Shown piece after piece: positions 1 to 44,369 of a stretch of DNA of 47,246 nt (its first letter is position 1; every line of letters begins with the position of its first letter). The translations under genes and the position numbers were made by a program. Origin of the DNA: Jimgerdemannia flammicorona. Lineage: Eukaryota. Below the pieces are notes generated by a model. That model was not told the origin of the DNA. It made no database searches and saw only the letters and a list, made by a program, of their open reading frames with translations. The DNA lies in contig RBNJ01000047.1 of NCBI GenBank assembly GCA_003990765.1, forward strand, positions 1-47,246, given 5' to 3'.

Positions 1-273
1 ATTTCTGACTATGAGAAAAATCTCACCAGTGTAATCTGGGTCAATTACTCCTCCTTCAACTGAGATTTCACTTTTGGCCAGACTGCTCCTGGTCTTGATA
101 ATTCCGGCATGGTTTTCTGGCAGCTTGACTCCAATTCCAGTGCCAAGTAGAGTGGTGGTCTGTAGTTCAAGGGTAGCATCTTGGATGCTGGCAAGGTCCA
201 TTCCTATGGCTCCTTCAGTCTTGTATTCTGGGATCTTGGCTTCAGGGTGAAACTTCTTGACCTTGAGGGTGAT
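1..273 (-). CDS. dut: dUTPase domain of family A polyprotein (partial)
   Basis: Manual translation: ITLKVKKFHPEAKIPEYKTEGAIGMDL...GTGIGVKLP...KTRSSLAKSEISVEGGVIDPDYTGEI, matching trimeric dUTPase motifs 1-3. Confidence 0.92.
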   Translation of the reverse strand, partial: MTLKVKKFHPEAKIPEYKTEGAIGMDLASIQDATLELQTTTLLGTGIGVKLPENHAGIIKTRSSLAKSEISVEGGVIDPDYTGEIFLIVRN

Positions 274-2370
274 GTCTGGTTCTTGTTCCTCCTCATCATC
301 ACTATCAGCTTGAAGCTCTGGGGGCTGGTCATCTTCTTCAGCTTTCTTTTTTGCTTCGGTGGCTTCTTGCTCATGTTTCTGTTGGTGGATTTTCCTGACT
401 TCGCTGATGCAGGACCAGCAGTCATTCAGGTGTTCGGAGCAGTACATCCTAGTACCATGGGGGCATCTTCCTTGAGGGGCATAGCTGTCAATGATCTTGT
501 TGTACCACTGCTCATCTGTGAGCTTGGGTGTCTTGTTCTTGTTCTTGTTCTTGTTCACCGAGTGCATGAAGACCTCTATGTCTTCCTCATCTCCTTCCTC
601 CATGTCTGGCAGGACTCCTTTGTGGACATTGATAGAAACTCATACCTTTCTCCCTCTGTAGTTGATCTGCATCTTCTGGGCATTGAGATCAATGATGGCC
701 TTGGCCTTGTGAAGCCATTGATTGCCAATGAGGATGTCATAGTTGGTGGTGCTTGTAACAATCATGTCTACTGGAATGGTAGCTCCTCCTATCTTGATGG
801 GGACTTCTTGGATTTTGCCAAGGGGGGTAGCTCGTGTACCGTCTGCTGTGATATAGACTATCTTGGTGGACTCTTCAATGTCCCAACCTAGGCGATCAAT
901 TGCCTTCTTGCTCATGAGGCATCCTCCAGCACCAGTATCAATAATGGCATCAAAGATACAGTCTTCAATCTGGCAGGGAGTATAGGCTGATGTCTTGTGC
1001 TGGTCTTCGGATTCTTCACCTGAGTTCTCAGATTCTTCTTGTGCATTGTGAGCTTCTACAATCTTGTACTCTTGATTCTTGACAGTGGTTGCAAGTCTTA
1101 CTCTCAACTGCTGTCTGAATGCAGGGACTTCAGCTAGCTGCCCAAAAGTGGCATTGACCTTCTGTTCCTCGAGGTTCTTGTAGATGTCATACTGGTGGAT
1201 CTTGGTCTTGTGCAGCTTCTGTTTCTTCTTGCTCTTGCTTTCTCCTGAGACTGGAGTAGTGCCTTCGATAATTTGGCGGGCAGCCTCATCTAACTCCATA
1301 TCTTGATCAATCTCCTTGTATTGGGTCTTACTTTGGATAGTGACAGCTGGAGTCTTCTTTGGTCTTCCAACTGGCTTGCTGTTGCTCTTCTTGTCATAGG
1401 GCTTGGACCGGGTTCTGGTACCTTGAGTAGCAGGGTAGAATTCAAGCTCCTCGTAGTATTGTTCATCATCAGTGTCACTGATCTCCTCGATGACTACTGT
1501 ATTGGTTTGTTCTCTGGTTCTGCTAGCATTGCTTGGTTGGGCTTTGCGTCTTATTTTGGTCATGCAATTCTTTGCATAGTGGCCTTCTTCTCTACATCTG
1601 AAGCATGTGATGTTATTGCATTCTTCTGTAGCAGCTGCAAATCTTTGCACTGGTCTCCTGTTGGCACTTCGGACTTCTCTAACAACATCACCAAGGTGTG
1701 CTGTCATCTTGGCAAACTGCTTGGCAAGTTCTTCCACTGGGTCAGCTTTGGCTGTCTTTGGGATAAGTGGGGTTGGTTGTCTATTTACAACTGTGGTAGG
1801 TAAGATACTAGTTGGCTTTGATGGCTCCATCTTGATGCCAGTTATTTTCTCCATTAAGTGTTCAGCAGGGTGTCTGGCAGTCCAATATCTCTGTGCAAAG
1901 ACCACTTTCTGATCAAGGGTCAGTGCAGCTGGGGTAGACCGGATTGCTAGGGCAATTTCAGGGTGAACTCCTTTGAGGAAGGTTGAATCCGCTATTTGTT
2001 CCTTGAGGTGGTCATCATAGCCAGCCAAGACAATCTGGTGGCAGATTCGGATATAGAATGAATTGGGATCTTCACTAAGTCCCTGACAGATAGTATTGAG
2101 TTGATCCTTGAGAGCTTGCTTAATCTCTTCAGTATAATATATTGTTCTGAGGAAGGCCTTCATGTTGGCAAGTTTGGCTACACCAGTATTGGCAATGGTG
2201 GCTGCATTGAACTTATCTCTGGCAGGTCCTCTGAGGCTGACTGGTAGAAGGGCCAATTGAGCATCCACACCAAGAGCTTGTACAGCGGCAAATTGTTCAA
2301 AGTCTTCAATGAAGGTCAGGATTGACTCTTCAGTAGTATATCCATAGAATGTGGGGGGACGCATTTCCAT
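1..2370 (-). CDS. Gag-protease-dUTPase polyprotein in a single frame, one in-frame TGA at 640-642, truncated by window edge
   Basis: ORF 640..2370 has CFRCREEGHYAKNC and AIIDTGAGGC...DILIGNQWL. The frame stays open past the TGA to base 1 (VSINVHKG...GMDLAS...GVIDPDYTGEIFLIVRN). Confidence 0.9.
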
Positions 2371-2471
2371 CTTATCTTGAATTCTTGCAGGGGGTGACTC
2401 TTGTAGTCAGGGTAGTTGTTGTGGGGGTTGTTCATTTTTCAGCTTGAAAGTGAGGGATTCGTCTTGAATCA

Positions 2472-2488
2472 CCAGCCAATGGGCACCA
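2472..2488 (-). promoter_or_regulatory. Primer binding site of A1
   Basis: TGGTGCCCATTGGCTGG begins 3 nt after the LTR end. A2 has TGGTACTTATTGGCTGG in the same position (31866-31882). tRNA identity not assigned. Confidence 0.7.
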
Positions 2489-2698
2489 AGTTGTTATGTA
2501 GTGGTCACTGAGTCCTTCAAATATGCCAGATTCTCTTCAAGGTGTATCTCTTAGACTAACTCAAGTTTGTTATAAGCAAGTTCTTATTGGAGTGCCTTCC
2601 CAAGGTCTTATAGTCCTCAAACTTCTTATCTTTAACTGTCTTGTTATCTCTTAGATTGCTCACAAGGAAGTGTGTGTATTGCACTGAGAGAAACTGAC

Positions 2699-2731
2699 TT
2701 TATTTCAGAGGAAATAAGAGAGGTATTTATA
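2699..2731 (-). promoter_or_regulatory. LTR TATA box (TATAAATA, 2724-2731) and poly(A) signal (AATAAA, 2699-2704)
   Basis: Canonical U3/R arrangement, conserved in the A2 LTR near 31624-31656. Confidence 0.7.
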
Positions 2732-2915
2732 CAAAATATAATTCAATGGTTGCTAAGATATAAAGCTAAATATAAATTCCAATAACTAAAACTACTAAGT
2801 TCCAGGACTGGCATTATTTAGTGTCACATCAAAATACCAGTACTGGAACAATTTCGTGTCACCTCAGTGTTACATGAGAAAACCAGTGCTGGCATTATCC
2901 AGTGTAACAAAGAAC

Positions 2916-3773
2916 TTAGAGCAGAAAGTTCAGGATCATGGGAGCTTCATCATCATCATCATCATCATCACTGAAGGAGATGAGGTCCGCGAATTCGTCA
3001 TGTAGGTCGCGCGTTTCGCGTACTTCGCATGCCTCGTCACGCGGTTCGCGTGCTTCGGGTATGTCGCGCGGGATGACGTCATCGATGACGTCATCACGTT
3101 CGGCTGTGGCGGGGAAATCGGGAACAAGGTCTGGAGCTCTCCAGTCTATGAGGTTCTCTTCCACAAAATAGGGGACAAATGTGGGGTCTTGGGGAGATCA
3201 AACTCGGATGCTTGGGCCTTGGAATACTGAGATCAATCCTTGCAGGAATTGGTCTGGGTTGTCCTGAAGGATAGAGTGCCAAAAGTCTTCTACTTCTTCA
3301 CTGTTGAGGGTGATGGTGGACTGGGCTTCTGTAGCTACCCTGGCTTCTAGTGCATTGATATGGTGGGATGACAGGTCTCTGAAGTCTGAGACTCTAACAT
3401 ACTCTAAGTTGGGGATCGACCATGGTGCATGCCTGAAGATCTGATGGATCTTCTTTGCTGTCCTTGCCTCACGTAGGTCCATGGGGGTGGTATCTTGTAG
3501 CTCTTGAGGGCTGGCCTGTGGGAACTCCCAGCAGAGGAGGTTTCCTATTTCGTACTCCTGCCACATTTGGAGGCATTTGGTGGTGATGGTGATCCTTATT
3601 TCCATTTCACGGTGATAGAGGATAAAGTGATAAGGGTCTGCAGTATCCAGATTGACGCTAGGAGTCCTTCTTGAGTGGGTCCTCATGGCTCTTCTGATGT
3701 CTTGGAATATCCTTTCCTCGACCGAGATACCTTGATGATTCCTTGACCTTGAGGTTTGGCAGGCAGCAGGCAT
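2916..3773 (-). CDS. LTR-encoded ~285-aa protein of unknown function, acidic C-terminus, one TGA at 3198-3200
   Basis: ORFs 3198..3773 and 2916..3164 are in the same frame. A2 has AGA (Arg) at the TGA position. Upstream TATAAAAG at 3849-3856 and CAAAATG start context. Homologues in the A2 and G LTRs. Confidence 0.8.
3072..3095. promoter_or_regulatory. Perfect 24-bp palindrome, 2x GATGACGTCATC (two CRE-type TGACGTCA sites), inside a CpG cluster
   Basis: Sequence read directly; regulatory function is inference. Confidence 0.55.
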
Positions 3774-4011
3774 TTTGTTTGTGGTAAGTCTTTGAGCTAT
3801 TTTGGAATTGGTGGTTCTTGTTGCTGCTACTATGGTTCCTTGATCCTTCTTTTATATTCTTCAGGATACTTGTACTGTGGTCACAATGACTCACAGTTGG
3901 TCATCATTGCTCATCTCATATGTTATATGATCTTCTTGTACTCTGATCTGGTAGCTTGTAAAGAAAGACTGTCTCCTGTGCTGATGTCATCATTCTGGGG
4001 TCACTGTTACA

Positions 4012-5009
4012 CTATATATACAATATATATATATACAAATATACAAATATAAATATATATCCCTTACTCTGTAATGTAGCTAAATTTGATTACAAAAAAA
4101 ACTACTAAAAAAATATTATAAAAATCAAAAGAAAATCAAAAAAATTAAAATACAAACAAAAAAATCTAATTTTTTTTTTTTCAACTTTTATAACTTTTTT
4201 CAATTTTTTTTTTTTTTTATAATTTTATACTCAATATCAAGTCCAAAAAAAAAAATCACTATATTATTTTACAGAATAAGAGATATACAAATATATAAAC
4301 ACATATATGTATATATCAACAGATCAGTTTTTAATAGTTTATAATACTAATGATATTTCTTGTCAAACATCCTTGATAGTTCTATACTTTCCATATAATT
4401 CTCATTCTGAAATCTGGTAAAATTGTACCAAAACTAGAGATAATGTTATATATAATTAATGCAGATAAAAAATTAAAAAAAGAAGATATATTTATAATAT
4501 AACTAATACTTTTATTTAATATATACATGATATTGTTTTTATCAACCTCTTATATTATACAGCCAGAAGTTCAAAATGCTTATTTGAATATATATCAACA
4601 TATAAAAGACAAATACTCTAACAAAATAAAAAAGAATACAAAATAAATAAAATCAATATCTAAGCTATAGTGGGTATATTTATCTGATTGCCCAAACATT
4701 TCTATATCAACAACCCTATTTAATAAAAAATATTTTGCTATATTCTTTTACAGAATTTGAAAATTGACTTATTTACTAATTATATATATAGATTGACCAT
4801 TTACAATCATCAAGAGTGACTAATTATATAGTATCTTTGATGTCCTCAAGTATGATTTATATCTGCTAAGTACCAATATTATTCACAAATATATCCTGAA
4901 GACCTATAGAATAGAGTACAATAATTTTTGTCAAATACTTCAAATGAAATAAATAAATAAGAACAATATCATAACTATTGTAAGCTAAATTATATATATA
5001 TATATATAT
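4012..5009. other. Very AT-rich spacer with poly(A)/poly(T) runs and (TA)n at both ends
   Basis: Low complexity, no recognisable domain. Confidence 0.6.
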
Positions 5010-5546
5010 TGTAATGATATCTTTGAAACTAGTGATATCAGAATCTGAAGACTGCTTAGACTTAGCAAGTTACTAGTTATAAGTTATGACTCAACTATAA
5101 CTCATCTTGATTATAAGATGATCTGCAACTGAACTCATAATGACTCATAATGATCCCAGCAGTATACTACAAATCAGATAACTCTATACTCTAGATTGAA
5201 GGAGTAGCCCCTCAAGATATAAAAGAAGCATCAAGAGAAGGAGGATAAGGCATTAATTACAAAGCTCACTATAAAACAAGATGTCTGCTACCTGTCAAAC
5301 AGTAAGATCAAGACACCACTCAGGTCCATCAGTTTAAGAATAAATGTTCACTGATATCAAAAGAGCATATAAGAAGAATCCCTAGTCTGAACCTCTATAC
5401 AAGAGATCTCTACTACTACACCCTCAACTACCAGAAGAATTATTACTGCCACTGAGTACCTCTGGATATAGCAAGATATAAAATAGAACATCACCTCTGC
5501 CAGAAGTTCTTACAGGCCAGCTCTTAAGAAATTGAAGACACTATAT

Positions 5547-6768
5547 TGTAATAAACCAAAATGTACTATCTGAATTATAACTTAGCCAGATGATGTGAAT
5601 AATTAGCATACTTCTAGCATGATGTGATATCTAATATATCATAGTTACTCATGACTGCTATACTTATAATTAGCTGGGATACCAGACCAGGGTTGTTTAT
5701 CTGTGCCCTAAGGATATACTTATGTCCTCCAGACACACTCATGTCCTGCAGATACACTCATGTCCTGTGGACACCTGTACTCAGAGAATACACCCAAACA
5801 TTACCAGAAGTAGCAAATCTATAGTTAGCCACATAATAACCAGATAGCAACAAACATATATAAAATACTCCAGAGATAAGAGTAAATAAACCTCAGTCTG
5901 AAAAGTCTGAATTCAAAAGCAAAAGACAAGTCTGCCTATTATACTTCAAGGGATACACCTGCCAAAAGCCACTTGATCCAGAAAGGATTGAAACACTTAG
6001 GAGAAATGTCTGCTCTAAAGCCACTACTAGGAGATTGTGAGCATTAGTTCTCCTTTTCCACTCTAGTCCACTTTCTGATACTAAGAAGAGTTTGTTACAT
6101 TTTTGGTTCACTTGCCAGATAAGCCTGAAGAATCCGAGTTATTTTTCAGTTGAAGCCACTGATTTAGGAAGAATCTGCATCCTCCACTATTTTCAAGTTA
6201 TCTATATTCCCAGTTGAAGCTGCTGATTCAGGAAGAATCTGTGACATCTGAGTTAATCATTATTCCCAGTGAGCTCAAGAAAAATCTGCTGCCAGTATTA
6301 TTCCCAGAAGAAGAATCCACACCATACAACTCCTAGTGAGCCAAATCAAGTTGTCTGCCAAAACTGCATAAGGAATATTGCCAAGATCATCCTGCATAAG
6401 GAATTCATCATACTATACCCAGACTGTCACACATAGAGATTGTCATACTACACAAGAGATCATTACCCAGAAATTGTATACTTTTGGAGATCATGATACA
6501 TACAAATTTCTACCAATTCCCAGTTGACCCAAGAAGGAAATCCATTTACACACAAATTGCCACTACACCCAGAGAACCATCCCAATTAGGAAATCAACAT
6601 ACAAATCACTTGCTGATATCCAGCTTTGACTATTATACCACTAAACACCAAGACCTCAGGAATCTTAGAACATTTTTGTTGCTTTTTGACAAAGTAACTA
6701 GGGGCTCAAGCCAAACTACATCAACCCCCAACCTTATAATTTGCCTCTATTGAGCCAGACATATTACA
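5547..6768 (+). repeat. 5' LTR of B (1222 bp)
   Basis: Direct repeat of 14326-15639; TATAAAA 5859, AATAAA 5885; internal tandem units. Confidence 0.95.
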
Positions 6769-7325
6769 TTTGGAGGCTTAACTGGGAAGATTTCAAGTTG
6801 ATGTAACTTTTCAACTCATAAGAACTCATAGTCAAACTGGATACATTTGATACAAAACCAATCTCTGTCACCACAGAAGAACCAGTTATTACTAGTATCT
6901 ATATAGGAAGAGAAGTAATCACATCAAGACTTGCCAACTACCTAGCATTAGAAGGATTCCAACCAGAACCAGAAAGTAGTACAGCCTGAAATCCCCAACC
7001 AGATCAACCAGACAACACAGGTGGCCCTGTTGGAGATTTTGAGGAACTTGTACAAGAATTAGAAGATCTTATTATATAAGTCCAAGACCTTACAGCCAGA
7101 CATCCCATACCAGTTCCATCAATCTCATCAATAGAACCTTTAACACAAGCTCTTACAGAATTGGAAATAGCTCCTATAAGAATACCTAGGCTCATTTTAC
7201 TTTGTCTAAGGTCCAGAACAACATCCTCAGGATACCCAAGCACCCCCATCTCCAGTGATACCTCTGAAAGTGAATCAGAATCAGAATCTGGACCAGAACC
7301 AGAATCAGAAGAAAGTGATGACAAA

Positions 7326-10300
7326 ATGGCCACCTCATTGCCAACCTTTGCAGGATACCCAGAGGAAGACCCCAGAGAATTCCTTGATGGAATTGAAGGA
7401 ATCACAGCCCTGAGAAATCTCTCAGATAAAAGAAAAATCACCATCTACAAGGCTCAGCTCAGAGAACCAGTTGGAGGAATTTTCCACCAAATAGCAGATA
7501 ACTCTGATTCAGAATTGGCGAGACAGATATGTACAAGCAGCAATGTCTTATAAGCTAGAATATGTGGCCATGGTCCACTGGCTTATTGAAAAGTATGCAG
7601 AAAATGAAACCCACCATAAGGCTCAAGAATCCATCATGGGGATGAAGATGAATCTTAGAGAATCACCCAGAGCCTTCTTTACAAGAATCCAGAAGAGAAT
7701 GCATGCTGTTGGGTTCAATGCTACTAACCAGGACATCATAGGTCCAATGACCTTCATGAACAGAATTCCCCTGAACATTGCCCAGCATGTCCATACTCTA
7801 GGCATCAGAAGGTCTGAAGAGCAAGTAGATACAGCCTAAGAATTCTTTGATGTCAGACAAAGAACTACCTGAAGTGATCATGACAAGAAAGAAGATAAAG
7901 TAGACATCCTGGTCAAAGCCCTGTAAGGACTCCTTTAAGGACAAGAAAGATCTGAAGATAGAAGGCCAGCCAAAGAAGGAAAGAAGGACAGAAGCAAAAT
8001 CCAAGACCTCAGCTCCAAGTTGGACTGATAGGTTGGACAAATTGAAAAACTCACCACATGCAAAAATCAGAGCTACCAAGACAACAGAGGATACCCACCA
8101 CAGAGTAGCCAAGGTTATCTACCAAGAGATAATAGGAATTACCAGCAAGAGGAAAGAAGGTACCCTGTCTGAGATAGAGCATAAGTCCAATGCTTTCACT
8201 GTAGACAGTTGGGACACTATGCCACTGAATGTGACAACAAAAGAAGTGACTGAAGGGACTCAGAACCACCAAACTAAAGAAATGACACTCAGTACAAGAA
8301 GACTGAAGCCCATCCTGTTGAAGTTTTCAAAGAAGCAAGCAACAGTGAAGACTACAGTGATCTAGACTTATACCCTACCAAGGTTACTATCTGAAAAACA
8401 GTCTACCCAGTAGAGAAGAGGAAGAGACCTGTTGGAAGGCCATCTAGGAACATCAGTAGAAGAATCATCCAAGAAGAAGACAAAGAGCATGAGGAGGAGC
8501 AGGTAGAAATATCTCTCTGAACTCTCTCACCATTTGTTCTCGAAACAAATGAGCTGCCACTAGAAGATGAAGAAATAGAACAAGAAGAATGGGAATCTGC
8601 TACTTCAAAGCCCAAGAAGAAGTACACCCCAAAGACCATGTCTAGAGACATTTACAATGAAGCCTGGCAGAAGATTCAAGAGGCCAAGATGGAAGTCTCC
8701 CTCCTGCAGTTCCTGCAACTGACACCAGCTGGAGTCTGAAACAAACTGCTGAGAACCACCAGGTCCAGCACTGGCCAAGTTCCAATCCCATAGCAAGAAC
8801 CAGTTTCTATCCCTGTCCAAGCAGTTGAAAGACATATCAGCATCTATCTACATGGAGATATTGGAGGACAAAAGGTGAAAATCCTCATAGATACAGGAGC
8901 AGCTATCTGTATCATTGCCAAATGATTCCTGGACACCCTCCAATGGCCCATTGATGGACCATCCAATCTCAGTATCATAGTAGCAGATAGAGCCCGAACT
9001 CAACCCCTTGGAGAAATATGAAATATCACCATTTCCCTGGGACACATTCAGTTTCCTATTCCCAAAGCTGTTGTCACTGAAGCTGTAATCTATGATATGA
9101 TCCTTGGCACCAACTGGATGAAGGAAATGAATACAGTTATTGATATCAGCCAACAAGTACTCAAGTTTGACTACTGAGGCAAGAAGTACAGAGTTAAGGT
9201 GACTAGCTATGAGCAATCAAAGAAGAAGAAGAAGGTCACCATCTAAGAAGAATATGCCAGCAGTGAAGAATCTACCACAGAAGAAGAGGAAGAATCTGAA
9301 GATGGAAATGATCTCAAACTCAACCCCCAAATTAACCTGGTGGATGACAGACCAGAAGACAATGTGTGGGCCAAGAACACTATCCCTATCACCATTGGAG
9401 CCATTGCAGGAGAAATCAAAGAATGCCCCACCTGCCTCAAGAGACACAAGTGCCCCAAGCACTCTTCCAAAATCATTGGGATAAGGAATTCGCCTGGCAC
9501 AGCCTGCCCTGAGTGCAGAAGGAAGAAGAAGAAATGCAGACATGTTCCAGAAACACCTGCAACCAAAGCTGCAGAAGTGTAAGCAATTTGGGGACAAGAA
9601 TCATCTGAGGAAGAAGAAGTTTCTGACCAAGAAGTTCCTAAAGGAGAAGCACCTGAAGAAGAAGAGGTTCCTGAACTCTTCCCTGGGATGACTCTCACTG
9701 GACACCACTTGAAGATAATGACCCTTGGAATATGGAAGAAGGATCCAGCACAATCACCATTATCTCCAAGAAAAAGGCCTTTTAGTTAGAAAGATGTCTC
9801 CACCAAATGGTCTTCCACTCTCCCCAAAACTACTTCTATCAGTGCCATCTATTAGACCAATAGGAGAGACAGAGACCCCAGAGACCAGAACCCCTGAACA
9901 CAGTTGCACAGTCATCTATCTTCCAAGAAGTTACCATCAAGCTGCAAAGTCAATTCAGAGGACAAGGTCTCTTCACCCAGACAGAAGTCTACCCCTGTCT
10001 ACTTTTCCACCAACTTATGACTAAGATGGATACTGATTCCCAAGACAACAACAGATCAACAACTGGGAATATCATTTCTAAGCAATGGGATATTGTAACC
10101 ATGGAAGACACCCAGACTACCAAGATTGCAGACACCAGAAGATTCACCTCAGTCATGATGTTGCAATTCATACCTTGAAGAGAGGAGATGACAGAAGCCA
10201 GATCCAAAAAAGTCAGACCAAGAAGCCAGGAAAAAGGATCCTCAAGATCTATGATTTAGGAGAAGACATCCTAGCTCTCATTAGACATGCAACCTGCTAA

Positions 10301-13300
10301 GGATGGGTAGAACATGCCACCAACTTCATGGAAGCCCTAGACCCTATAGGAAGAAGAGGAATCAACTATCTCCAAGACCCCTCTACTGGAGCCAGATGGC
10401 CACACCTCAACCTCAGAGCCTGGAGGCTCTCTACTAGTAGAGCCTTAGCCCAAGGAAAGGCCGAACTTAGCAAGGATGTTGCCCAGTATGCCCTGCTACA
10501 CCCCAAGGCCAAACTCCTGACCAAAGCACACCCAGAAGATGTAGGATATGATCTCCACAGTATGGAGGATAAATCTATCAAGCCTGGAAAAACATTCATA
10601 ATCAGAACCAGGCTAGCCATGCAGCTACCCCTGGGAGCTTATATCCAACTGACCTCAAGGTCTGGACTTGCTAAACAAGGAATAACTGTAAAAGGAGGAA
10701 CCATTGACCCAGGATATACAGGCACGAAATCAAGGTTATCCTACACAACAGCAGTGCAGAATGGCACTGAATCATTAGAGAACAGAAGATTGCCCAAGCA
10801 GTCTTCTTGAAGGTCAGGACCCTGTGATTACAAGAAGTGTCTGAACTGACTGAAGGAACAAGACAAGCCAAAGGATTTGGAAGTTCAGACAAGAAGGAAG
10901 TACATCTCCTTCAAGTCAACTATCTCAAGAGGAATGTTCCCCAGCAAGTATACTGCCAACCAGTCAAACTGTACAAGAACCTCATCCTGGAGCCTGGAGA
11001 ACAAACCACCTTTGAAATCTTTGCACCACCCGACCCCAGAAACCTTTTCTTTAAACCCAAGGAAGATATACCACACCTGGACATAGAAGGACACACATTC
11101 CCTGACAAAATGAATCCAGTACACTTCTGAGCAACCAACCAAAGTTGAGAAATCATCATCTTGCTGAAAGGAATCATCATAGGACATCTGGTGCCTTTTC
11201 TCAGTTGAACTCATAGAGAAGTTTATAAACTAAACTTATTGGGAAACAGAAAAAGGTCCTAGAAGAAAGGAAAGGCCCCTCTGCGACCCAGGAGACAGTG
11301 AAGCCTTCCACCAACATTGGAGAAGAATTGACATCCCAACAACAGAAACAACTAGTAGAACTTCTCAACAAATATCAAGATATCTTTACTACCAATTATA
11401 GCAACCTGCCATATAATCCATCATATCACCACAGCATCAATACAGGAAATGTAACACCCATCTGTCAGAAATCCTATAGAATACCCCATCACTTGAAAAC
11501 ATTTGAAAAGGAACACATTCAAGAACTCTTAGACAATGGAGTCATCCAACCCTCTACCAGCCTCTGGGCCAGCCCTATACTTATTGTACCAAAGAAAGGA
11601 GGATGGAAACTCTGTATGGATTACAGGAAACTCAATTCAGTTACTGAAAAGGATGCCTATTCTTTGCCCAGAATTGATGACCTTTTGGATTAGTTACAAG
11701 ATACCAGATACTTCAGCAGTATAGATCTCTTCACAGGATTCCACAAGATCTCCATAGACCCCAAGGACATTCAAAAGACAGCCTTCCTTACTTTAGGAAA
11801 ACTGTTTGAATACCTCCAAATGCCCTTTGGACTTTGCAATGCACCCACCACCTTTTAGAGGATGATGAATTCAGTCTATACCCCCTTGATCCACTACTAC
11901 CTGATTGTATATATGGATGATTTCAACATCTATTCAGCAAATTTCGAAGAATACCTGCACCACCTAGAGGAATTCTTCAAGCTCACCCACAAGAACCACT
12001 TGAGACTGAATGCAAAGAAATGCTACTTTGGGAAACAGAAACTCGAATTCCTTAGATTCATAGTTTTGAAGGAAAGAACCCATATAGATCCAAAGAAAAC
12101 CGAAAAGATCAATAATTGCCCAGCACCCAAGACCCCAAAGGAAACATTATCATTCCTGATACTGGTATCCTACTATAGAAGATTTATCAAGGATTTCACC
12201 CAAATTGCTGCTCTAATCTGAATTCTTCTCAAGAAAGAAGTTCCATTCAAATAGACAGAATCATAAGAAAAAGCCTTCAAAGAACTCAAGAATCATATGA
12301 CTATAGCACTAATCCTTGTGTGCCCCAATCTACAGAAGTCATTTATCTTGTATACAGATACTTCCAAAGATGGCCTTAGAGCAGTTCTAGTCCAAAAAGG
12401 ACATGACCAACAATACTATGTGATAGTTTATACAAGCTGAGCCACCAGTTAGCAGCAGATGAACTATGGTAGCACTAAACTAGAATATCTTGCTGTCATA
12501 TGGGCAGTCACCCTCTTCAAGTATTCTTATTGGAAAAAGGTTCATCTTGATCACAGACCATGTAGCCCTCAAATGGCTATTCAACTGCCAGGAACTCACT
12601 GGAATTCTAGCCCACTGGATCCTTATCTTTTAGGATTACAAAATAACCATCATCCACAAGGCAGGGAAAGCCTACAACAATGTTGATATACTTTTCCACC
12701 AGCCCCAATGAACCAGAAGAAGGGAGTTCTGAGGAACTACACCCTAAAGGAAGCTTCTCAGACCATCAAGGTACAAGAAGATCTTATCCAAAAAAACATC
12801 AGAAAGCCCACCAAGGACAGGCAAATATAGAAGAGAAGCTGCGAACAACACACCAACATTGGCCCAACCTCAGAACACAAGTTCAAGATATACTTAAGAA
12901 ATGTGACACCTGCCAGAAGTACCAAGAAAGGAAGAATTACCAAGCACCATTGCAACCAATCATACCACCAGACAAAATCTTTCAGAGATTGGGAATAGAT
13001 GTAATTGGACCTCTACCAGTTATACCAAGAAGAAACAAATACATTCTTGTATTTGTGGAACATCTGACCAAGTAGCTTGAGGCTTTTCCAATAGAAATCA
13101 CAGATGTCTTAACTATTGTAGGCCTTCTCCATAGACTCACACTCAGATATAGACCCCCAGAAGAACTTATCTCTGACCAAGGCACAGAATTCATCAAAAA
13201 CATAATCACAAGTTATACCTGAATTCACAAGATCCACCTCAAACAGACCACATCATACTACTCTCAGACCAATGGCATGATAGAAAGAATGAACCAGACT

Positions 13301-13786
13301 ATCAAGAAAGAACTTGCCTAAGTCAATTCTATCAATTGGGACCTCTGCCTATTTGAGATTCTATGGGAAATTCAGAACACCCCTGCTGCCTCCACCAAAC
13401 AAAAGCTATTTGAAATGATGTTTGCTAAGAAAACCAGAACTGCTGATTATGAGAATCTTGGAGACCTCCTCAAGAAGGCAGAACAGTTATGTAATGAAGC
13501 CTGAGATCATATTATCAAAGCCCAAGTAAGACAAAAGAAGTATTATGACCAGAAACAGAAGGATCAGAAGATCAAGATTAGAGATCAAGTATTAGTTTAG
13601 AGAAGTATGATTGAAATAAATTTTGCCACCAAATTGGAACCCAAATGAGAAGAACCTTATTTTGTACATAATATCAGAGGAACCAGCATCTATTTAAGAA
13701 GCATGGATGAACAAACCCTCAGAACACCAGTACATATCAATTACCTCAAGACATACCTTTCCCCACATTATGAACTAGAGAATTGA
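7326..13786 (+). pseudogene. B gag-pol, with multiple stops and frameshifts
   Basis: MATSLPTFAGYPEEDP gag start; CFHCRQLGHYATEC 8191-8232; LIDTGA ~8890; dUTPase; [10 protein letters not shown]...CMDYRKLN...VYMDD; RNase H LYTDTS...YLAVIWAV; integrase H..H..CDTC, IDVIGP, SDQGTEF, NGMIERMN. Confidence 0.93.
10478..10890 (+). pseudogene. dut: dUTPase domain of B, frameshift near 10724
   Basis: VGYDLHS...TSRSGLAKQGITVKGGTIDPGYTG / EIKV...QKIAQAVF...TRQAKGFGSSD: all five motifs. Confidence 0.92.
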
Positions 13787-14286
13787 CAATCACCTTCAGA
13801 CCCTTGTCCTCAGTTCCTTCCAGGCTCTACCAGTTCCTCTGCCACAGTTCAGGGAGCCCAATGGAACATATCTCCAAAGAATTCAGGTACATCAAGAAAA
13901 CCTCACTCTGATCAAGAGACTACTTCAGATCCACCAGCTGTAGGCCTACTATGCAATTGGAGAACAGTTGCAGAATCTCTCCCTCCCAGACCTGGCCTAT
14001 GTCCATAACACCACTGACCTGAACAGAAGGAATACCACTGCTGCAGAAAGGCTATATACAATCTACAAATGAAACTCTTCAGCTTTAATCCAGGCCCAGT
14101 TCTCTCTGAATAATCTCCAAAGAATGTCCCTATCCACCTATCTCAGCATCATTTATCAAGTTGAGACCCTACTCCCTGAGAAAAAAGAAGAGCCTTTAGA
14201 ATGGAGTGACCCTAGTACAGATAACAAAAAATAATGGAATAGGTATAGATGCAGAAGATGCTTATGCCTATTGGGATGATGACTAA
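13770..14286 (+). pseudogene. ORF3 of B between integrase and PPT, ~170 codons, unknown function
   Basis: ATG overlaps the integrase stop. Frame reads MN*RIDNHLQTLVL...HQL*AYYAIGEQL...NTTDLNRRNTTAAERLYTIYK*... with TAG/TGA stops explainable by C>T, and an acidic end after a probable frameshift. Confidence 0.65.
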
Positions 14287-14325
14287 AGAATAGTCTGGGA
14301 CAGACTATCCTTCAGTGGGGGCTGA

Positions 14326-15639
14326 TGTAAAAAACCAAAATATACTACCTAAATTATAACTTAGCCAGATGATGTGAACAATAGCATACTTCCAGCATGA
14401 TATAACATCCAGTATATCATAGTTGCTCATGACTGTCACACTTATAATTAGCTGGAATACCAGATCAGGGTTATTTATCTGTACCCTAAGGACACACTTA
14501 TGTCTTGCAGACACACTCATATCCTGCAGACACACTCATATCCTGTAGACACACCTGTACCCAGAGGATACACTCAAACATTTCCAGAAGTAGCAAATCT
14601 ATAGTTAGCCACATAGTAATCAGATAGCAACCAACTTGTATAAAATACCCCAGAGACAAGAGTGAATAAACCTCAGTCTGAAAAGTCTGAATTCAAAAGC
14701 AAAAGACAAGTCTGTCTATTACACTTCGAGGTATATGCCTGCCAAAAGCTACTTAATCCGGGAAGGATTGCAATACTTAGGAGAAATACCCACTCTAAAG
14801 CCACTACTAGGAGATTGTGAGCATTGGTTTCTCTTTTCCACTCTGGTCCACTTTTCAATACAAAGAAGAGTTTGTTACATTTTTGGTTTGCTTGCCAGAT
14901 AAGCCTGAAGAATCTGAGTTATTTCTCAGTTGAAGCCACCAATTCAGGAAGAATCCATACCACCTGAGTAGTATTCCCAGAGAGCCACCAATTCAGGAAG
15001 AATCTGCATCCTCTGCCATTTTCAAGTTATCTGCATTCCCAGTTGAAGCCATCAATTCAGAAGAATCTGTGATATCTGAGTTAATCATTGTTCCTAGTGA
15101 GCTTGAGAAGAATCTGCCACCAGTATTATTCCTAGAAGAATCCACACCATACAACTCTCAGTAGACCAAATCGAGTTGTCTGCCAAAACTATATAAGAAA
15201 TATCACCAAGATCATCCTGCATAAGGAATTCATCATACTATACAGAGATTGTCATGCAGAAATTGTATAAGAAGAACTGCTAAATTGTCAGACCATTATA
15301 CATAGAGATCATCATGCTACATAAGAGATCGTTGCCCAGAAATTGTATACTTTTTTGAGATCGCACTATATACAAATTTCTACCAATTTTCAGTTGACCC
15401 AAGAAGAAAATCCATTTACACACAAATTATTGCTATACCCAGAGAACTGTTCCAATTAGGAAATCAACACACAAATTACTCACAGATATCCAGTTTTGAC
15501 TATTATACCACTAAACACTAAGGACCTCAGGAATCCTAGAATATTTTTATTGCTTTTTGACAAAGTAACTGAGGGTTCAAGCCAAACTACATCAATCTCC
15601 AATCTTGTAATTTGCCTCTATTGAGCTAGGCACATTACA
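14326..15639 (+). repeat. 3' LTR of B (1314 bp)
   Basis: Direct repeat of 5547-6768 with extra internal repeat units. Confidence 0.95.
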
Positions 15640-16371
15640 ATATATATGGACAGATATGAGCAAAAACTGACTAGAAGAATCCACCAGATCTTCAGACATG
15701 CACCCTGAGCTATTCTCAATCTCAAGTATTTCAAAGTCTCTAATATTCAAGATTTGACAAGCTGCTGTATAGACTACCTCAAGAAAATGATTGCCAAGGA
15801 GGCCCAATCTACTATTATAGTCAAGAGTGATGAAGTTCAAGATCTTTGAAACTCTATTCTAGAGAACAACCCAGATCAATTCCTCCATAGTCTGATTGCA
15901 CTATTTCAAGACTCTTCTCTGAGAGCCTGCTATCCTCAGAACTCCACAGATGTTCTCTACTTTGTGAATGACCTCACCATTAACTAGAGACCTCAAGAGT
16001 AGAAAGATATCACCTCTCTAGACAATTTAGAGAATAATGACAACTCATTTATTTTACTGGAAGATGATACCTATAACTTCCTTTCTCCCTTCCAAGATAC
16101 TCTCATTAACTCCAACACAACTGTAGAGAATGCAGAAAATGATTTAGTCAGACACTCTGAAGAAAATGAGAAGAAAGAAGATGATGATATAATCTCTATC
16201 ATATTGAACTTTAAGATGTATAAGGATAGCTCTATTAGTCAAATTTGAGTAAGTTAGTACATAAATGTATATTTAACTAGCCATATTTGAGTTAGTTAGT
16301 TAGTTGCACAAATAGTAACTATACTTTAACTAGCCAAATTTGTTACAAATATAAACTAGCCTTTTTTAGTT

Positions 16372-16446
<75 letters not shown>

Positions 16447-17040
16447 GTCTCTTGGACTCTATTTATTATCAATTTCTCTAGTATCTATGACAATTGAATC
16501 TTTCCCAACTACTGCTATGAAATTATATATAAAGAAGGACCCTTCAGCCAACTTCTTCCTTCCATTGTACCCCTCAGTCATCTAGTACTAGATTACTATA
16601 GATCCTCTGTCCAATGTCCTGCACCTTCCTCAAGGCCCTCAGCTGATGCCACTTTCTCTGATACTACCACCCTTGTACCACCTCCTGCAGAAGCCACCTC
16701 TACTACTCTATCAACTCACCAATCTCCATCTATAGATCATGCTTGAACACTTATTGCCAATATACTGCCATTAGGACCCAGACTCCAAGAATCTGGCCAA
16801 GCCCCCCCCAGATATCTCCAGTCACTCCCACCAATTGCCACTTGACAATCAGACTAGTGGGTTCTCCCTGCCACCTGTCTTCAGAACCACAATATTCCTC
16901 TAGCATCTGCCAATACCCTTCTATTCCTGGACATCTCGCCAGAACATGCTCCAGTGATTGAACCATACTACTACAATTCATGTTATAAACACTTTTACAA
17001 CATACTTTCAAGTCATTTATTAGAGAAAGATATTAAGGCA

Positions 17041-19062
17041 ATATCAACCAGCAAGCAAGCAGATGTATATACTAGGTCAGGTAGATATGGAGTCTTTAAC
17101 TGGCAACATATCAGACAAGGGTATAGGCTTGAGATGAGGTCTTTCAGTGGCCTGAGTAGGCAGGGCAGCTCAGGCAGTGGAAGTGGTGCTGGTGGTGGGG
17201 CCAGTGGGCAGAAGGGAGGAGCTTTGCAGATATACTGCAGGCTGGTAGTTGGCTGATGGGAACTTATAGTGGGCAGGCAGGAGAGAAAGAGAAGCAGAAG
17301 GTTGAGGAAGCTGGAGGGGACAGACCTCAGCCAGTGAGAGGTGAGGCTGGTGGGGTAGCTACTAGGAGTAGTGGCAGGACTGCTGATGGTAGTGTGACTG
17401 GGAATCTGAAAAAAAATCTAGATATGACTATTAATGGGAGGGCTGGACAGATGGGCCCAAAGTGGAAGGGGGACCTGGCTGATGGTGTGATGGGGCTGGT
17501 AGTTGCACCATTACTCAAGAAGTCAATTTCAGAGTTCACAACAACCTTGTGCTTCAGGGGCTTGGCAGTGATGGCAAGAATAGTTCTGGGGCTTATTTCA
17601 GAGCAAGTAGCTGAAGCAGTCTCAGTGAAGTTTCTGAAGGGTCTGGAAGGGGTTGAGGTGGGCTTTGAGGAGGCAGACACACTGGATGAGGCTCTGAAGA
17701 CTAGAGTGGCAGTCAGGGAAGTGGTGGTCCCTATGGTACAGTACTTGAGGTGGGACCCCAGGGTGGTGCAGTTACTGGTGAAGGGGGTGCCTATGGTGAT
17801 AAAGAAGGAGACCAGGAGGAGGGTGGAGGAAGTAATGGTGGAGTATGGTGATGTAGTTGATATCAGCTTCCAGTTGTATGAGGGGACCACCTTCAGGATA
17901 TATCAGAATTAGACTGGCTGGGAGAGAGGCCACAGGAAAGATGAGTAACTGGCCTTCAGTGTTGATATAGGGGGCTTTTGTCTGCAAGGTGTCAAGGGTG
18001 AAAGGGAGTGAGGAGGAGGAGGAGGAGGAGGACTTGTTGGAGGCTCTAGAGGAGCTGAGTGGTGCTGTCGAGCAAAGGGTGAAGGCCTGGAAGTTGTATG
18101 TGGAGTTGACACATCTGGAGATTGTGGATGGGAAGTATATTTGTACTGACAAGAGGTAGTGGGAGAGGGCTCAAGGGCACCAAAGGCAGAGGGAGCTGCT
18201 GGTAAGCATAGATGGAGGGGTGAAGATGATGGCTGGGGGTCCTGAGAGTCTGAGGATGTGGAGGTGAGTGTCTGGGCAAGCAAGGGAGAAGGAGATGTGG
18301 AGGAGGGCCTGGAGGGAGCTGAGAAGATATCCCATAAGGTCCCTTTTGCTGATGGTATGTTTGAAGTCTGGGAACCAGTCATTGATGACACTCTCCCACT
18401 GGTCAGGTAGGGTCTAGCTGTGAGGGGTCAGGTGGCAGAAGATGTATTGATGAAGGGTACTCAGCAGACACTTTGGGGTTCCTGATGTTATAAAAGGTGG
18501 GCAGGTGGTGGCAGTTGGTGAGGATGAGCTAGTGGATGTCCCAGAGGAGGGGTGAGATGAGACTGCCAGTATAGGGGCAGATACCACAATGCTGGATGCA
18601 GGAAGGCCAGGGACACCAGGAGGAAAGGAGGTGGGAAACCTGCTGTGGATGAGCAAGATGATGGATAACTTCATGGCTGAGGAGTTGGGGGAAGTGGACT
18701 TGCATGTATTGCCTGAGGAGCATTGGGTACAGATTCTGCATAGAGGTGGGGTAGTGAGGGTACTGAAGGCTGAGATACTTGTGATCTTCCTAGAGAAGGA
18801 GGGTTATGAGGTTGATAAGAAAAGGGAGACTAAGTTGGCAGTAATTGCTGGTGAGTGAGCTGCCTACTATTGGGTGGAGCATCATGGTTTACAACTCTAG
18901 CAGGAGGTATGCCTGGAATATCATAAGGATTTTGAGAAAAAAGAGGATGGGGCAATGGCTGAACTTCTGAATAGGCTGGAGGCACAGGCAGCAGAAGAGA
19001 GGGTGCTGGCTGCTGAGCATGACTTAGACTTGGCACAGGAGGAGTTGAATGTGGACTTGTAA
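17041..19062 (+). pseudogene. LINE C ORF1 (Gly-rich N-terminus, RRM-like core, acidic region)
   Basis: ORFs 17256..17912 and 18589..18858 are homologous to D ORF1 (VEVGFEE / VEIGFVE; EGYEVD / EGYEVN) and lie upstream of APE. Start inferred from an ATA codon. Confidence 0.75.
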
Positions 19063-19065
19063 AGG

Positions 19066-22000: not shown

Positions 22001-22680
22001 TGATAGAGTGAAATATCAGTGGAGACTTGGACAGGATCTATGGCCAAGTAGTTGGCAGGCAGTGAGGATTGGTGAGGAGTGGGACTGGGTAGGAGTCTGG
22101 TCATAGAGTACTGATATGTAGAGGTGGCTTTCTCCCAAGTTCTGAGTAGTATGGTAGAGGATGCTGCAGAGGAATATCATGTTGAATTTCCATGATGGAC
22201 ATCTGGTGGATGGTGGTCAATTAGATTATGAGGAGTGCTATAATGTCCGGCAAGTTGGGGGATTTATGCAGATACCAGAACATTGGCTAGGAGAGTGTGA
22301 GGTTCTGGGAGACTTTTGGATAGCAGTAGAGACTTAGTTGGGTGTGGAGAGGAGGCCAGATGGAGAGAGAAGGCAGTGGGAGGATCTGAAATCTAGGTTA
22401 GTGGGAGGTGTGGGTAATGGATTGCTCACTGTAGGATGGGTTTTAGCTATATGAGTAGGGCTAGCTAGACATTGGCTCTTTGTTTTTGAGGAGGGGCAGT
22501 AGTTGGATATACAGGAAAAGTTGTTGAGATAGGAGGGGTTGATGGGAGATCTGTTGACTGGGTGGTGGGTTGGTTGGGGCCCCTAGGGTGGGCGATGTCA
22601 CCATTTGATAGAGGGGATCTATGAATAGAGTGGTGGGTGGGTGGTAATGGTGAATGACAAAGTGGTCTTTTATCAAGAAG
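19066..22680 (+). pseudogene. LINE C ORF2 (APE-RT-zinc finger)
   Basis: FSLNMNGLRG, LLQDV, GGDFNMV, RIDWI, SDHW; GEDGLPWDFW, KNWRLIMLL, FLDQEKAYDHI, PQRDPLSPIL, AFADDIVV, VRYLGIF; EHWLGEC. End approximate. Confidence 0.9.
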
Positions 22681-25600: not shown

Positions 25601-26045
25601 TTACAAATCATATTAAAGTCCCCCCCAGAATGTACAACCCCACCTTCTCCCAACCTTCCCATACCAGCCAGTTTACCACTCATTGCTTTTGCTCTCTACC
25701 AATAGCTGGTAGGTAAACAGAGCCCACCACCAGTCCATCACCTATACCTCCTTTCAATCTACCCCATATCAATCAATTGCTATAGGTTTCTACTTCTATA
25801 AGTTCACCTCTATCAACAGCTACTAAGATGTCCACCTGTCTATTCCAACCCATACTGCCATATCTTTCTCTACTCTACTCTACATAATTCTGTTCACCAT
25901 AGGCTTGAACATCTTGAAGAAGTACCACATCATACCTCCTGACTTTCAGCCAATGAAACAAATGCCACCACTTAACTCTATCTCATAGACCATTGACATT
26001 TAGAGATAATATATATGTACTGTTCATCATCATTGATAGAAATGT

Positions 26046-27937: not shown

Positions 27938-29262
27938 TCAACAGAAAATTGACATATTTTGATGAAACTTATTATGCTATATTGCCAGACTCCTGCTGCA
28001 CCTAGTACACTAGCATAGGTAAAGTGAAAACTTGAAAACATATTGCTTTTTGTGAAAAGATATCAGTGTAGCTTAGCTTGCTCTGAGTGGTTTGAACAAA
28101 AAAAGTCTCTGCCTTTTTCAGTTAGTAAGTCACCTAAATTTCAAAAGCATACTAAATAGTATCTTCTAGTAATTGTGAGTTTTAACCAATTATCCAGCCT
28201 TATATATAGTCTGAAATCTGTATAAATACCCCCCTGATCAGAAGTGAATAAACCTCAGTCAATTGGTATATAATATAAGTCTATTAGTTTACAACACCAA
28301 CTTAAGTTCTGAAAGACAAGAGAAGTTAAGTATAAGAACTTTGGGAAAAGACTCCAAGAGCTGAAGGAAATCACTCTTGCCACTGCTATTACAGAAATCA
28401 GATACAAGACCTTAGAATTCAAGATTCAAGATATATATAAGAGCATATGTTCAAGATACCAGTCAATTGGTTTTATCAACTTAAGCTCTGAAAGATAAGG
28501 AAAGTTGAGTATAAGAACTTTGGGAAAAGACTCCAAATGCTGCCTTGGAAATTCAAATATCAAGAACAATCAAGAATTACCACCATAGTCAGATAAGGAA
28601 ATGACCACTACTTAGGATACTAAGAACTACTGCCACTATGAAAATCAGATACCAGACCCAGGAAAACTTATTAGAATACTTATTAGGGATAATAGGAAAT
28701 AATCACCAACTGTCAGAAAGCTCAGAAAAACTACAAAAAAAGTTCTTTGACCATTTCAACATTTTGCTATATAGAATGTCTGGTTACATAATCAATGATC
28801 TGCAATACACAAATTCTAACCTGATATGAGAAATATACTGAACATTGAGCCAGAATATTGTAAGTAAAGATATCAATAGTCTATATATATATATATATAA
28901 TCAGTAGCACCATTGAGCCATATATATCAGCATATATGTATTAGCAACCAGACTCATATAAATCACATACCACATTTTGGAGACTCAACTGGAAAAGTCT
29001 TCTAAAGACTTAACCATTTGGCTCAGGAACCCAGTAGCTATCTGTAGTAGAGAATTCAGGAGAATCTAGCCAGCAACAAGACTAGAGCCAGTAACAGTCC
29101 ACTCTAGAAGAAGAAGCTTATACCATTATCAGGACAGCTCTCACCCTGTTCAGGATCAGTAGTCAGAAAACTGAATCAGAAGAAAGAAGTGATACAGACT
29201 ATAGTTTGACCTCAAAAGAAAGAAGCTACCTCAGAGAACAACCTGAACCCATTCAGACTTAA

Positions 29263-34900: not shown

Positions 34901-35010
34901 AAATAACCCAAGGAGTATATCAACAACTCTTCTCTTTCTTTTAATATGATCACTAATTAGCCTCAAGTAATTATAACAGAATAACTCTAATAACTATCAG
35001 TTTCTACATT

Positions 35011-44301: not shown

Positions 44302-44369
44302 AGTGTTGTGACTGATATCTTGAGAGGTGTCTTGATAAGGCTAGGTGTAACTTCACCACTGCTATCAAG

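Follow-up and report, generated by a model that had tools for sequence, protein, structure and literature searches.

We describe here an open reading frame (ORF) that very probably lies inside the long terminal repeat (LTR) of a retrotransposon family in contig RBNJ01000047.1 of Jimgerdemannia flammicorona (assembly GCA_003990765.1), the 47,246 nucleotides (nt) of which are referred to throughout as the window. That this LTR ORF is a real gene under selection we hold with high confidence. The fuller reading, that the 1.5–2 kb LTR of a dUTPase-bearing Ty3/Gypsy family holds a real accessory gene of 271–342 residues, upstream of its R (repeat) and U5 (unique 5′) signals, we put at about even. 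In the window the ORF occurs in the LTRs of two elements, A1 and A2, and in a further LTR of another subfamily, G (Table 1). The original prediction, made from the sequence of the window, had named a TATA box, an ATG, a sense-strand frame with an acidic tail, short repeats, a second TATA box and an AATAAA in the A1 LTR, and all of these parts are present on the minus strand where it had placed them.

Evidence for a gene under selection

Open frames were found in relatives of the A1 ORF. A search of 5.8 billion proteins (E up to 0.01, 607 candidates) gave six clusters, which hold 16 JGI/IMG and ENA sequences on contigs of 540–2,375 nt. P0002 has a full-length open frame of 271 amino acids (aa) and is 72% identical to the A1 product (BLASTP), and P0009 and P0011 are intact 323-aa proteins of the G type. 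When a profile was searched across all 1.84 billion cluster representatives (E up to 0.001), only five clusters were found, all of 138–342 residues; this added P0017, P0019 (342 aa) and P0020, and the more distant members have 214, 342 and 200 residues. An N-terminus reading MPA or MPP and a C-terminal LNF motif are retained across the relatives. At the DNA level, a metagenome scan yielded one locus from 317 pattern matches, the 1,345-nt contig L001 with an intact ORF of 323 codons, and a viral-contig scan for further DNA copies yielded none from 95.

Comparison of A1 with L001 showed purifying selection. The ratio of nonsynonymous to synonymous substitution rates (dN/dS) was 0.14 over the first 214 aligned codons, which make up the N-terminal domain, and 0.51 over the tail, with 65/40/99 differences at the first, second and third codon positions. 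Over 618 aligned bases, the raw ratio of nonsynonymous to synonymous differences per site (pN/pS) was 0.30 in the ORF frame, a ratio that is rough owing to the near-saturated synonymous sites, with its direction not in doubt. In the other frames of the same 618 bases pN/pS was 1.03, 1.46, 0.93 and 1.36, and 0.48 for the antisense frame that shares third positions with the ORF; these five frames carry 5–15 stops each. Dropping the codons that touch a CpG left pN/pS at 0.31, so that the ratio is not close to 1 at non-CpG sites, and the predicted protein-coding gene is borne out.

The subfamilies also differ in how well the parts of the LTR have been kept. When A and G LTRs were compared by blastn, no other nucleotide match came near that of the coding domain in length or strength. 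Outside it, G matches L001 only in shorter stretches, at the 3′ end of the ORF, in the stretch after the ORF and in the region of the second TATA box and AATAAA. Judged from these alignments, the coding domain is better conserved than any other part of the LTR.

The copies in the window are themselves decayed, a point that the original prediction had overlooked for all three, together with the splitting of G. The predicted sense frame of about 285 codons does exist in A1 (ATG at 3773–3771, last sense codon ending at 2919, TAA at 2918–2916), but it is not open: codon 192 is TGA (3200–3198), and the longest truly open ORF has 191 codons. In the alignment column of this TGA, all 11 aligned homologues carry an identical residue. 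In A2 (30520–31353, plus strand) ATA replaces the ATG, there are seven stops, and the frame is broken into three segments in different frames with 47–66% aa identity to A1. The G ORF (5281–5542 and 15637–16249, plus strand) has eight internal stops, one frame change and two insertions. The recurrence of a TATA-start-ORF unit in A1, A2 and G, with aa conservation, therefore stands, with the qualifications that the start codon is gone from A2 and that two insertions divide G. The motifs quoted for this conservation are exact in A1 and G, with variant forms in A2: IHQIFRHAP is IYQIFRHTL there, NPDQFL is NPD*FL (the asterisk marking a stop) and ILNF is VLNF.

Position of the ORF within the LTR

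The evidence for a location inside the LTR comes from both the window and external contigs. The 5′ LTRs of A1 and A2 have a visible TG start, CA end and primer binding site, while their 3′ LTRs fall outside the window. The A1 ORF has the TG start (4011) on one side and the primer binding site (2488) on the other, and the A2 ORF is placed likewise. Its predicted position in the unique 3′ part of the LTR (U3) is upheld to the extent that in A1 and A2 the ORF follows the LTR 5′ end and precedes the primer binding site, and that it is also found in the G LTR, which has no gag downstream. The order and place of the whole unit are kept in A1, A2, G and L001.

Logan contigs of four public runs were aligned to window positions 1–4300. 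Contigs from two runs diverge from the window exactly at 2491, with two different continuations, and two contigs cease to match at 4004, followed by 1,739 and 70 nt of other sequence. These departures at 2491 and 4004 hint at LTR ends at other insertion sites, of which they have the expected look. Summed contig depth over the ORF domain (3169–3888) exceeded that over the internal region in the X1 soil run (1,258 vs 563, or 2.2-fold) and in run X6 (51.8 vs 16.2, or 3.2-fold); contig depth is a poor measure, and the difference is a hint only. Parts of the stretch were found in 20 of the 21 listed run rows, from 13 studies that are mostly soil metagenomes, and none of these runs holds half of its words. 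Among the same 21 rows there was no RNA run holding part of the stretch.

Two runs, X11 and X16, were guessed to be RNA, and their mean contig depths over LTR and gag (about 1,063 vs 0.4 and about 105 vs 2.1, respectively) were not used as expression evidence. If the guessed label is right, LTR-containing transcripts would be abundant in them. In one 1,897-nt contig from these runs, the LTR 5′ end is immediately preceded by 1,739 nt of other sequence. Contig breaks at 3820–3823 were considered as transcript starts and rejected, as the DNA runs break there too.

Signals flanking the ORF

The candidate promoter of the LTR ORF, TATA-1, has its end 75 nt before the ATG of the A1 ORF, and the ATG at 3773 is the first downstream of it. 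All four DNA copies (A1, A2, G and L001) retain TATA-1 and the A-rich context of the ATG (AAACAAAATG), with TATA-1 at the same position relative to the ATG. Upstream of it, a TGAGTCA/TGACTCA site, which resembles AP-1 or Gcn4 sites, is found at the homologous place in A1, A2 (30399–30407) and G (5140–5148). The motif is conserved in position only: with one mismatch allowed, the window as a whole has 13 matches vs 19.9 expected, and so shows no enrichment.

Downstream of the ORF are short repeats that are subfamily-specific. In A1 these include the palindromic CCAGNNCTGG, which has five matches in the window, three of them in 2802–2892, vs 1.02 expected, a count that none of 100 shuffles reached. 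A contig from run X11 has a 22-nt insertion at 2787 that adds an imperfect, CCAG-containing unit with no CCAGNNCTGG match, so the repeat region ahead of the second TATA box (TATA-2) differs between copies. TATA-2 itself starts 183 nt beyond the end of the A1 ORF, and a place upstream of it would fit a U3 location of the ORF. Its 11-mer TGTATAAATAC occurs three times in the window, once in each LTR (A1, G and A2), vs 0.02 expected, and again in L001 (1216–1226). AATAAA begins 27 nt past the first T of the TATAAATA box in A1 and 28 nt past it in L001.

Features of the LTR protein

The protein has three recognizable parts. The first 60 residues of P0002 are basic (net +8) and include the arginine-rich DIRRAMRTRTRR. 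A conserved domain of about 130 residues, approximately residues 22–153 of the P0017 model, is predicted to be helical and carries the motifs W-Q/H-EYEIG, HQIFRHAPW-IPN and LQDNPDQF, followed by FQGPxIR and PYFVEENLIDWR. A variable acidic tail of 60–110 residues then follows, which ends in DDDDDDDEAPMILNFLL in A1 and has a net charge of -4 to -9 per 30-residue block: P0002 has net -7 in each of its last two full blocks (211–240 and 241–270), and the last four blocks of P0009 have -7, -7, -9 and -4. An acidic-hydrophobic tail motif, L-I/L-S/N-F, is present in two copies in P0002 and P0001 and in three in P0019, the last copy standing at the C-terminus; its forms are LISF and ILNF in the A type, and LINF, LITF and VLNF in P0019. 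No membrane-like segment was seen in seven proteins (top 19-residue hydropathy 0.47–1.05).

No relative of known family or fold was found. No Pfam family reached its cut-off for the window protein or 13 aligned members; the sole match at E up to 1, to ATG5_HBR (E = 0.019, 15.2 bits vs a cut-off of 21.3, in 3 of the 13 members), was read as chance. The profile had no match among all PDB sequences at E up to 10, and the best ESM Atlas score was 0.91, to an unnamed cluster, with all others below 0.9. The structure models are weak, with predicted local distance difference test (pLDDT) values of 35.3 and 58.1 and a predicted template modelling score of 0.56 for the helical model (pLDDT 58.1). With such a weak model, Foldseek against PDB and a fold search of BFVD each gave no match at E up to 0.001. 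The best Z from VIA-align, with 48,161 chains compared, was 4.5, under the typical best Z for helical models that lack a clear relative. Alignment of the family with the element's own gag-protease by hhalign had a probability of 0.06%. The LTR protein is an orphan, with no relative in Pfam, PDB, BFVD or any named Atlas cluster, and no known transposable-element (TE) domain or other family matched it, a TE-domain match being one of the outcomes that would have refuted the original prediction.

The basic N-end, helical domain and acidic tail together led us to read the protein, on composition only, as a nuclear regulator with an acidic activation region. An acidic region studded with hydrophobic residues is present, as in the acidic activators of the Tas and Tax kind, which we use as a working analogy and not as a sequence family. 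For the transactivator or anti-silencing factor originally proposed, the charge pattern of basic N-end and acidic tail fits; beyond that pattern, the role is one that we infer.

A working model and its alternatives

In our preferred model, each LTR would be a small transcription unit of its own, consisting of TATAAAAG, an ATG 58–75 nt later, the ORF, the short repeats, and TGTATAAATAC with AATAAA. TATA-1 would drive an mRNA of about 1.1 kb that stops at the poly(A) site of the same LTR, and the protein could be produced from either LTR and from solo LTRs. Genomic RNA would begin past TATA-2, and would then carry the ORF only in its 3′ U3; the 5′ AATAAA would be ignored as too near the cap and used at the 3′ end, leaving a short R, an arrangement that occurs in several retroviruses. 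The protein would act as a nuclear trans-acting regulator, most likely an activator working on the LTR, and the palindromic CCAGNNCTGG repeats ahead of TATA-2 are candidate target sites, natural for a dimeric binder. From the sequence signals we judge the case for a separate promoter to be evenly balanced. The assignment of the protein as a transcriptional regulator, suggested by its composition, is tentative and somewhat doubtful. That every LTR is a complete gene for a trans-acting factor, one which would activate transcription of the family or blunt host silencing and which, doubled with each insertion and expressible from solo LTRs, would serve the family in trans, we regard as possible but short of an even chance.

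Several observations weigh against this model. None of the three window copies of the LTR ORF is intact. The selection test compares two DNA sequences, and its dS is near saturation (pS 0.69–0.71). The window holds no 3′ LTR of the family, such that a copy of the ORF at each end of one element was not observed directly, and as the 3′ end of the G LTR is not fixed, its label of solo LTR is uncertain. The contigs at hand cannot show transcript starts, and neither a start nor an end was seen; TGTATAAATAC with AATAAA could be a two-part poly(A) signal and not a promoter followed by a signal. On the side of the protein, the strict tail motif is absent from P0009, P0011, P0017 and P0020, the G type ending in LNFRL, and the weak models (pLDDT 35 and 58) gave no link to a DNA-binding or activator fold.

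The last of these points about the signals can be extended to a model with one promoter, in which TATAAAAG would be the sole promoter, TGTATAAATAC and AATAAA would form the poly(A) signal, and the ORF would lie in an R of about 1.1 kb as the first cistron of the genomic RNA, with short transcripts ending within the 5′ LTR as a second source of the protein. Eukaryotic poly(A) signals commonly include a UGUA or UAUAUA-like element ahead of their AAUAAA; the ATG at 3773 is moreover the first beyond TATA-1, and neither the contig data nor the conservation of the signals separates this model from that with two promoters. Against it, an R of about 1.1 kb would far exceed any known to us. TATAAATA is a perfect TATA consensus that stands 27 nt ahead of AATAAA, the usual distance from promoter to start, and the 11-mer TGTATAAATAC is exact in the three window LTRs and L001 while the sequence flanking it has diverged. 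We consider a single promoter unlikely. A different question is what the protein does, and a post-transcriptional role, through RNA binding and an export or docking motif like those of Rev, Rex or the CERV protein of Cer1, or a role in countering host silencing, may fit nearly as well as that of a nuclear regulator, although taken by itself we find it quite unlikely. The arginine-rich DIRRAMRTRTRR near the N-end of P0002 and the conserved hydrophobic motif at the C-terminus would suit RNA export, and for anti-silencing the older window copies are CpG-free and heavily C>T mutated, so the host attacks repeats. On the other hand, an acidic tail of 60–110 residues is more typical of activation domains, and the need for an export factor is not evident, there being no splice sites or spliced RNAs known for the element. 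Cer1 CERV does provide a published case of an RNA-export accessory protein in a Ty3/Gypsy element (PMC10309623).

Two further explanations concern the origin of the ORF. A host gene may have been captured once into the LTR and conserved through a host-like function or because the capture was recent. Capture of genes by LTR retrotransposons is known (PMC7264820), and sampling of the lineage is sparse (1 relative of the gag-protease among 8,000 candidates), which means that a host paralogue could have been missed and that its lack is weak evidence against capture. Yet the ORF occurs in two LTR subfamilies, the proteins of which are 47–58% identical, and in more distant clusters, and thus points to long vertical descent within elements. 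A review describes transduced genes as occurring in one or a few copies (PMC7264820), which does not suit a host gene here, and across the 1.84 billion representatives the domain was found in no longer or differently built protein, its five clusters having 138–342 residues. We regard capture as very unlikely. The other explanation is that there is no gene at all, and that the frame is a chance feature of a conserved regulatory U3 or a nested piece of another mobile element. All window copies are broken and no known domain was matched, as this would have it, but the synonymous excess specific to the ORF frame already contradicts it. Open frames of 271–342 codons in diverged copies, the lack of any TE domain or gag likeness (hhalign probability 0.06%) and the constant place and order of the unit in A1, A2, G and L001 speak against it as well, and we give it hardly any credence.

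The carrier elements and the older repeats

The window consists of nested mobile elements stacked in strongly A+T-rich DNA, with 19% G+C in the flank at 4020–5000. In A1, the gag-protease ORF has 576 codons (640–2370) and matches Pfam zf-CCHC (3.5e-05) and gag-asp_proteas (5.5e-11), and the dUTPase match has an E-value of 5.2e-16. In A2, Pfam matches on the plus strand follow in the order dUTPase (2e-22), RVT_1 (3.5e-24), RT_RNaseH_2 (7.2e-30) and Integrase_H2C2 (1.4e-06); these were obtained on frames read through with X at stops, and the A2 protease was assigned by its likeness to that of A1. As reverse transcriptase (RT), RNase H and the integrase zinc domain stand in this order, the family is assigned to Ty3/Gypsy. 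The carrier is a Ty3/Gypsy (Metaviridae) element both by this pol order and by a CCHC gag that is followed by an aspartic protease. With the gag-protease as query, a single ENA protein was matched, at 40% identity (1 relative among 8,000 scored candidates).

Similarity between A1 and A2 starts at the 5′ end of the A1 LTR. The counterpart in A2 of the candidate primer binding site is TGGTACTTATTGGCTGG, at 31866, and both begin with TGG; the window has no tRNA gene and no Rfam family, so no tRNA was matched to the site. The internal region of A2 is interrupted by two nested insertions, at about 33350–37593 and 38745–44669.

Going from A1 (1–4030) to A2 (30241–33240), we counted 164 C>T and 113 G>A changes vs 45 T>C and 41 A>G, with the C>T changes in CpA, CpG and CpC contexts. 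The CpG observed/expected ratio is 0.0–0.09 in the older repeats, which comprise the A2 LTR (0.0), the nested Gypsy element H, the large insertion in G and the 38.7–44.7 kb element. That these repeats are near CpG-free and heavily C>T mutated indicates heavy mutation or methylation of repeats by the host. With a CpG observed/expected ratio of 0.61 in its ORF, A1 is young.

Table 1. Coordinates of the carrier elements, the LTR ORF and its associated signals in the window.
Feature	Position	Strand	Description and evidence
Element A1	1–4011	-	From window base 1; the sense strand of A1 is the minus strand
A1 internal region	1–2370	-	gag with CCHC knuckle and aspartic protease (640–2370), then dUTPase (1–603, truncated by the window edge)
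A1 5′ LTR	2492 (approx.)–4011	-	About 1,520 nt; begins TGTAACAG, ends ACATAACA; sequence read
A1 candidate primer binding site	2472–2488	-	TGGTGCCCATTGGCTGG; 3 nt past the LTR end
LTR ORF of A1	2916–3773	-	285 codons and TAA, one in-frame TGA; homologues, selection tests
TGAGTCA (AP-1/Gcn4-like) site	3886–3894	-	Some 35 nt ahead of TATA-1; no more than a lead
TATA-1, candidate promoter of the LTR ORF	3849–3856	-	TATAAAAG; read directly; kept in A2, G and L001
Three palindromic CCAGNNCTGG repeats	2802–2892	.	Between the ORF stop and TATA-2
TATA-2, candidate genomic-RNA promoter or upstream part of the poly(A) signal	2723–2733	-	TGTATAAATAC; 11-mer count
AATAAA, poly(A) signal	2699–2704	-	Read directly; same arrangement in L001 (1244–1249) and G (28248–28253)
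A2 5′ LTR	30265–31862	+	Strong C>T/G>A decay; ORF remnant 30520–31353
A2 internal region	31983–47246	+	gag, protease, dUTPase, RT, RNase H, integrase zinc domain; tblastn with A1 gag, Pfam
G LTR piece 1	5010–5546	+	TGTAATG start; TATAAAAG at 5218–5225; ORF codons 1 to about 95 (5281–5542)
G LTR piece 2	15640–16375 (end approx.)	+	ORF from about codon 95 to its end (15637–16249), then the first post-ORF repeats
G LTR piece 3	28105–28621 (both approx.)	+	TGTATAAATAC at 28219–28229, AATAAA (28248–28253), U5-like part
Nested Gypsy element H	5547–15639	+	Splits the G ORF at about codon 95; LTRs 5547–6768 and 14326–15639

The G LTR and other nested insertions

G is one plus-strand LTR cut in three pieces by two nested insertions, and it is not the simple diverged LTR of the original prediction, being interrupted by a nested Gypsy element (5547–15639) and by an insertion of about 11.7 kb. 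Its third piece was recognised through the match of L001 positions 1211–1345 to 28214–28361. The 3′ end, at about 28621 or later, is uncertain, and alignment to A1 there is unreliable. No gag match was found downstream of G by tblastn with A1 gag. The U5-like part (28263–28545) contains a tandem duplication of about 100 nt, and the end of L001 matches both 28214–28361 and 28516–28536.

The LTR pair of H is 81.2% identical over 1,319 columns, and ATAT stands on either side of the insertion. H also bears a dUTPase, yet its LTRs give no match to the LTR ORF, and the ORF is therefore not common to all dUTPase-bearing Gypsy elements in the window. The second insertion in G (about 16376–28104) has a T run of about 65 nt at its start, a CpG observed/expected ratio of 0.02, and a marked skew of G over C at 18–22 kb that reverses its sign at 24–28 kb. 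It holds ORFs of 124–233 aa of a kind that was not recognised, and no nucleotide repeats, inverted ones included, were found inside it or shared with the rest of the window.

In A2, the insertion of about 4.2 kb in gag/protease (about 33350–37593) has a 413-aa ORF at 35203–36444 on the minus strand, which looks hAT-transposase-like by eye, and an inverted repeat of 158 nt at 36997–37359. A third LTR element (38745–44669, minus strand) is nested just past the A2 dUTPase; its 300-nt direct repeats are 95% identical and 5,625 nt apart, and RT-like ORFs lie at 41485–42447. At about 46870–47246, G+C-rich sequence that has a proline-rich minus-strand ORF takes over from the A2 integrase frame; probably either a further insertion is present here or the remnant of the element comes to its end.

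Comparison with known systems

The nearest counterpart by position is the sag gene of mouse mammary tumour virus (MMTV), to which a full-text literature search for "LTR ORF" leads almost exclusively. Like the LTR ORF, sag is a gene of about 300 codons inside the LTR; each provirus thus has two copies of it, one per end, and the genomic RNA bears it in its 3′ part, whereas no 3′ LTR copy was seen here. The carrier of the LTR ORF is a Ty3/Gypsy element, and MMTV is a mammalian betaretrovirus. The Sag protein is a glycoprotein with a type II membrane anchor; the LTR protein has no membrane-like segment and no Pfam family at cut-off, and so is not of the Sag family. Sag is also expressed from spliced RNAs, in contrast to the TATA box that stands directly ahead of the LTR ORF.

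By function, the closest analogy would be Tas (Bel1) of foamy viruses, an accessory regulator encoded near the 3′ end, with an internal promoter, an activation domain that is acidic and C-terminal, and targets that lie in the LTR, all of which parallel our working model of the LTR protein. The bel2/bet genes of these viruses reach into U3. The tas gene itself lies between env and the LTR and is not kept in solo LTRs, whereas the LTR ORF probably lies wholly within the LTR, and no sequence or fold likeness between the two proteins was found (BFVD gave no match at E up to 0.001, with a weak model). In human and simian immunodeficiency viruses, nef partly overlaps the 3′ U3, is expressed from spliced RNA and encodes a myristoylated protein; it shares coding sequence with U3 but does not give a whole gene per LTR, and its protein is unrelated.

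Lineage-specific extra proteins are likewise found in Ty3/Gypsy elements as additional ORFs (aORFs), in the plant elements Ogre, Retand, Grande and RIRE2, in Cer1 of C. elegans (CERV) and in bdelloid rotifers (ORF3). Such ORFs of LTR retrotransposons are often orphans of unknown or regulatory function (PMC7264820, PMC10309623, PMC5408684), and rotifer and basidiomycete elements also have a dUTPase between protease and RT (PMC5408684). These known ORFs are in the internal region, whereas the LTR ORF lies upstream of the LTR 3′ end and of the primer binding site and so is not an aORF. The text of the plant review (PMC7264820) has no occurrence of any of five phrases for an ORF in or within an LTR. 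The LTRs of bdelloid rotifers are 159–551 bp long (PMC5408684), in contrast to 1.5–2 kb in the family described here. In the full-text literature, a scope to which subscription journals, Repbase and supplements do not belong, we found no protein gene resident in the LTR of a Ty3/Gypsy or other LTR retrotransposon.

If the reading is true, the LTR ORF would have no described precedent in Ty3/Gypsy elements as a protein gene resident in the LTR, and its product would make up a new protein family. We see it as a new variant of retroviral U3 coding, the protein probably being a nuclear regulator of the element; U3 coding, known from a few vertebrate retroviruses, would also have arisen in a Ty3/Gypsy lineage. 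LTRs are treated as non-coding control regions, and annotation pipelines mask them and seek no genes there; a selected gene inside an LTR would alter how such elements should be annotated. The orphan protein has a simple and testable layout, its helical domain standing between a basic N-end and an acidic tail in which short motifs recur. A gene of this kind may be a retrotransposon "public good" that outlives its element in the form of solo LTRs, and would bear on models of cooperation and cheating among transposons and on the domestication of TE genes by their hosts.

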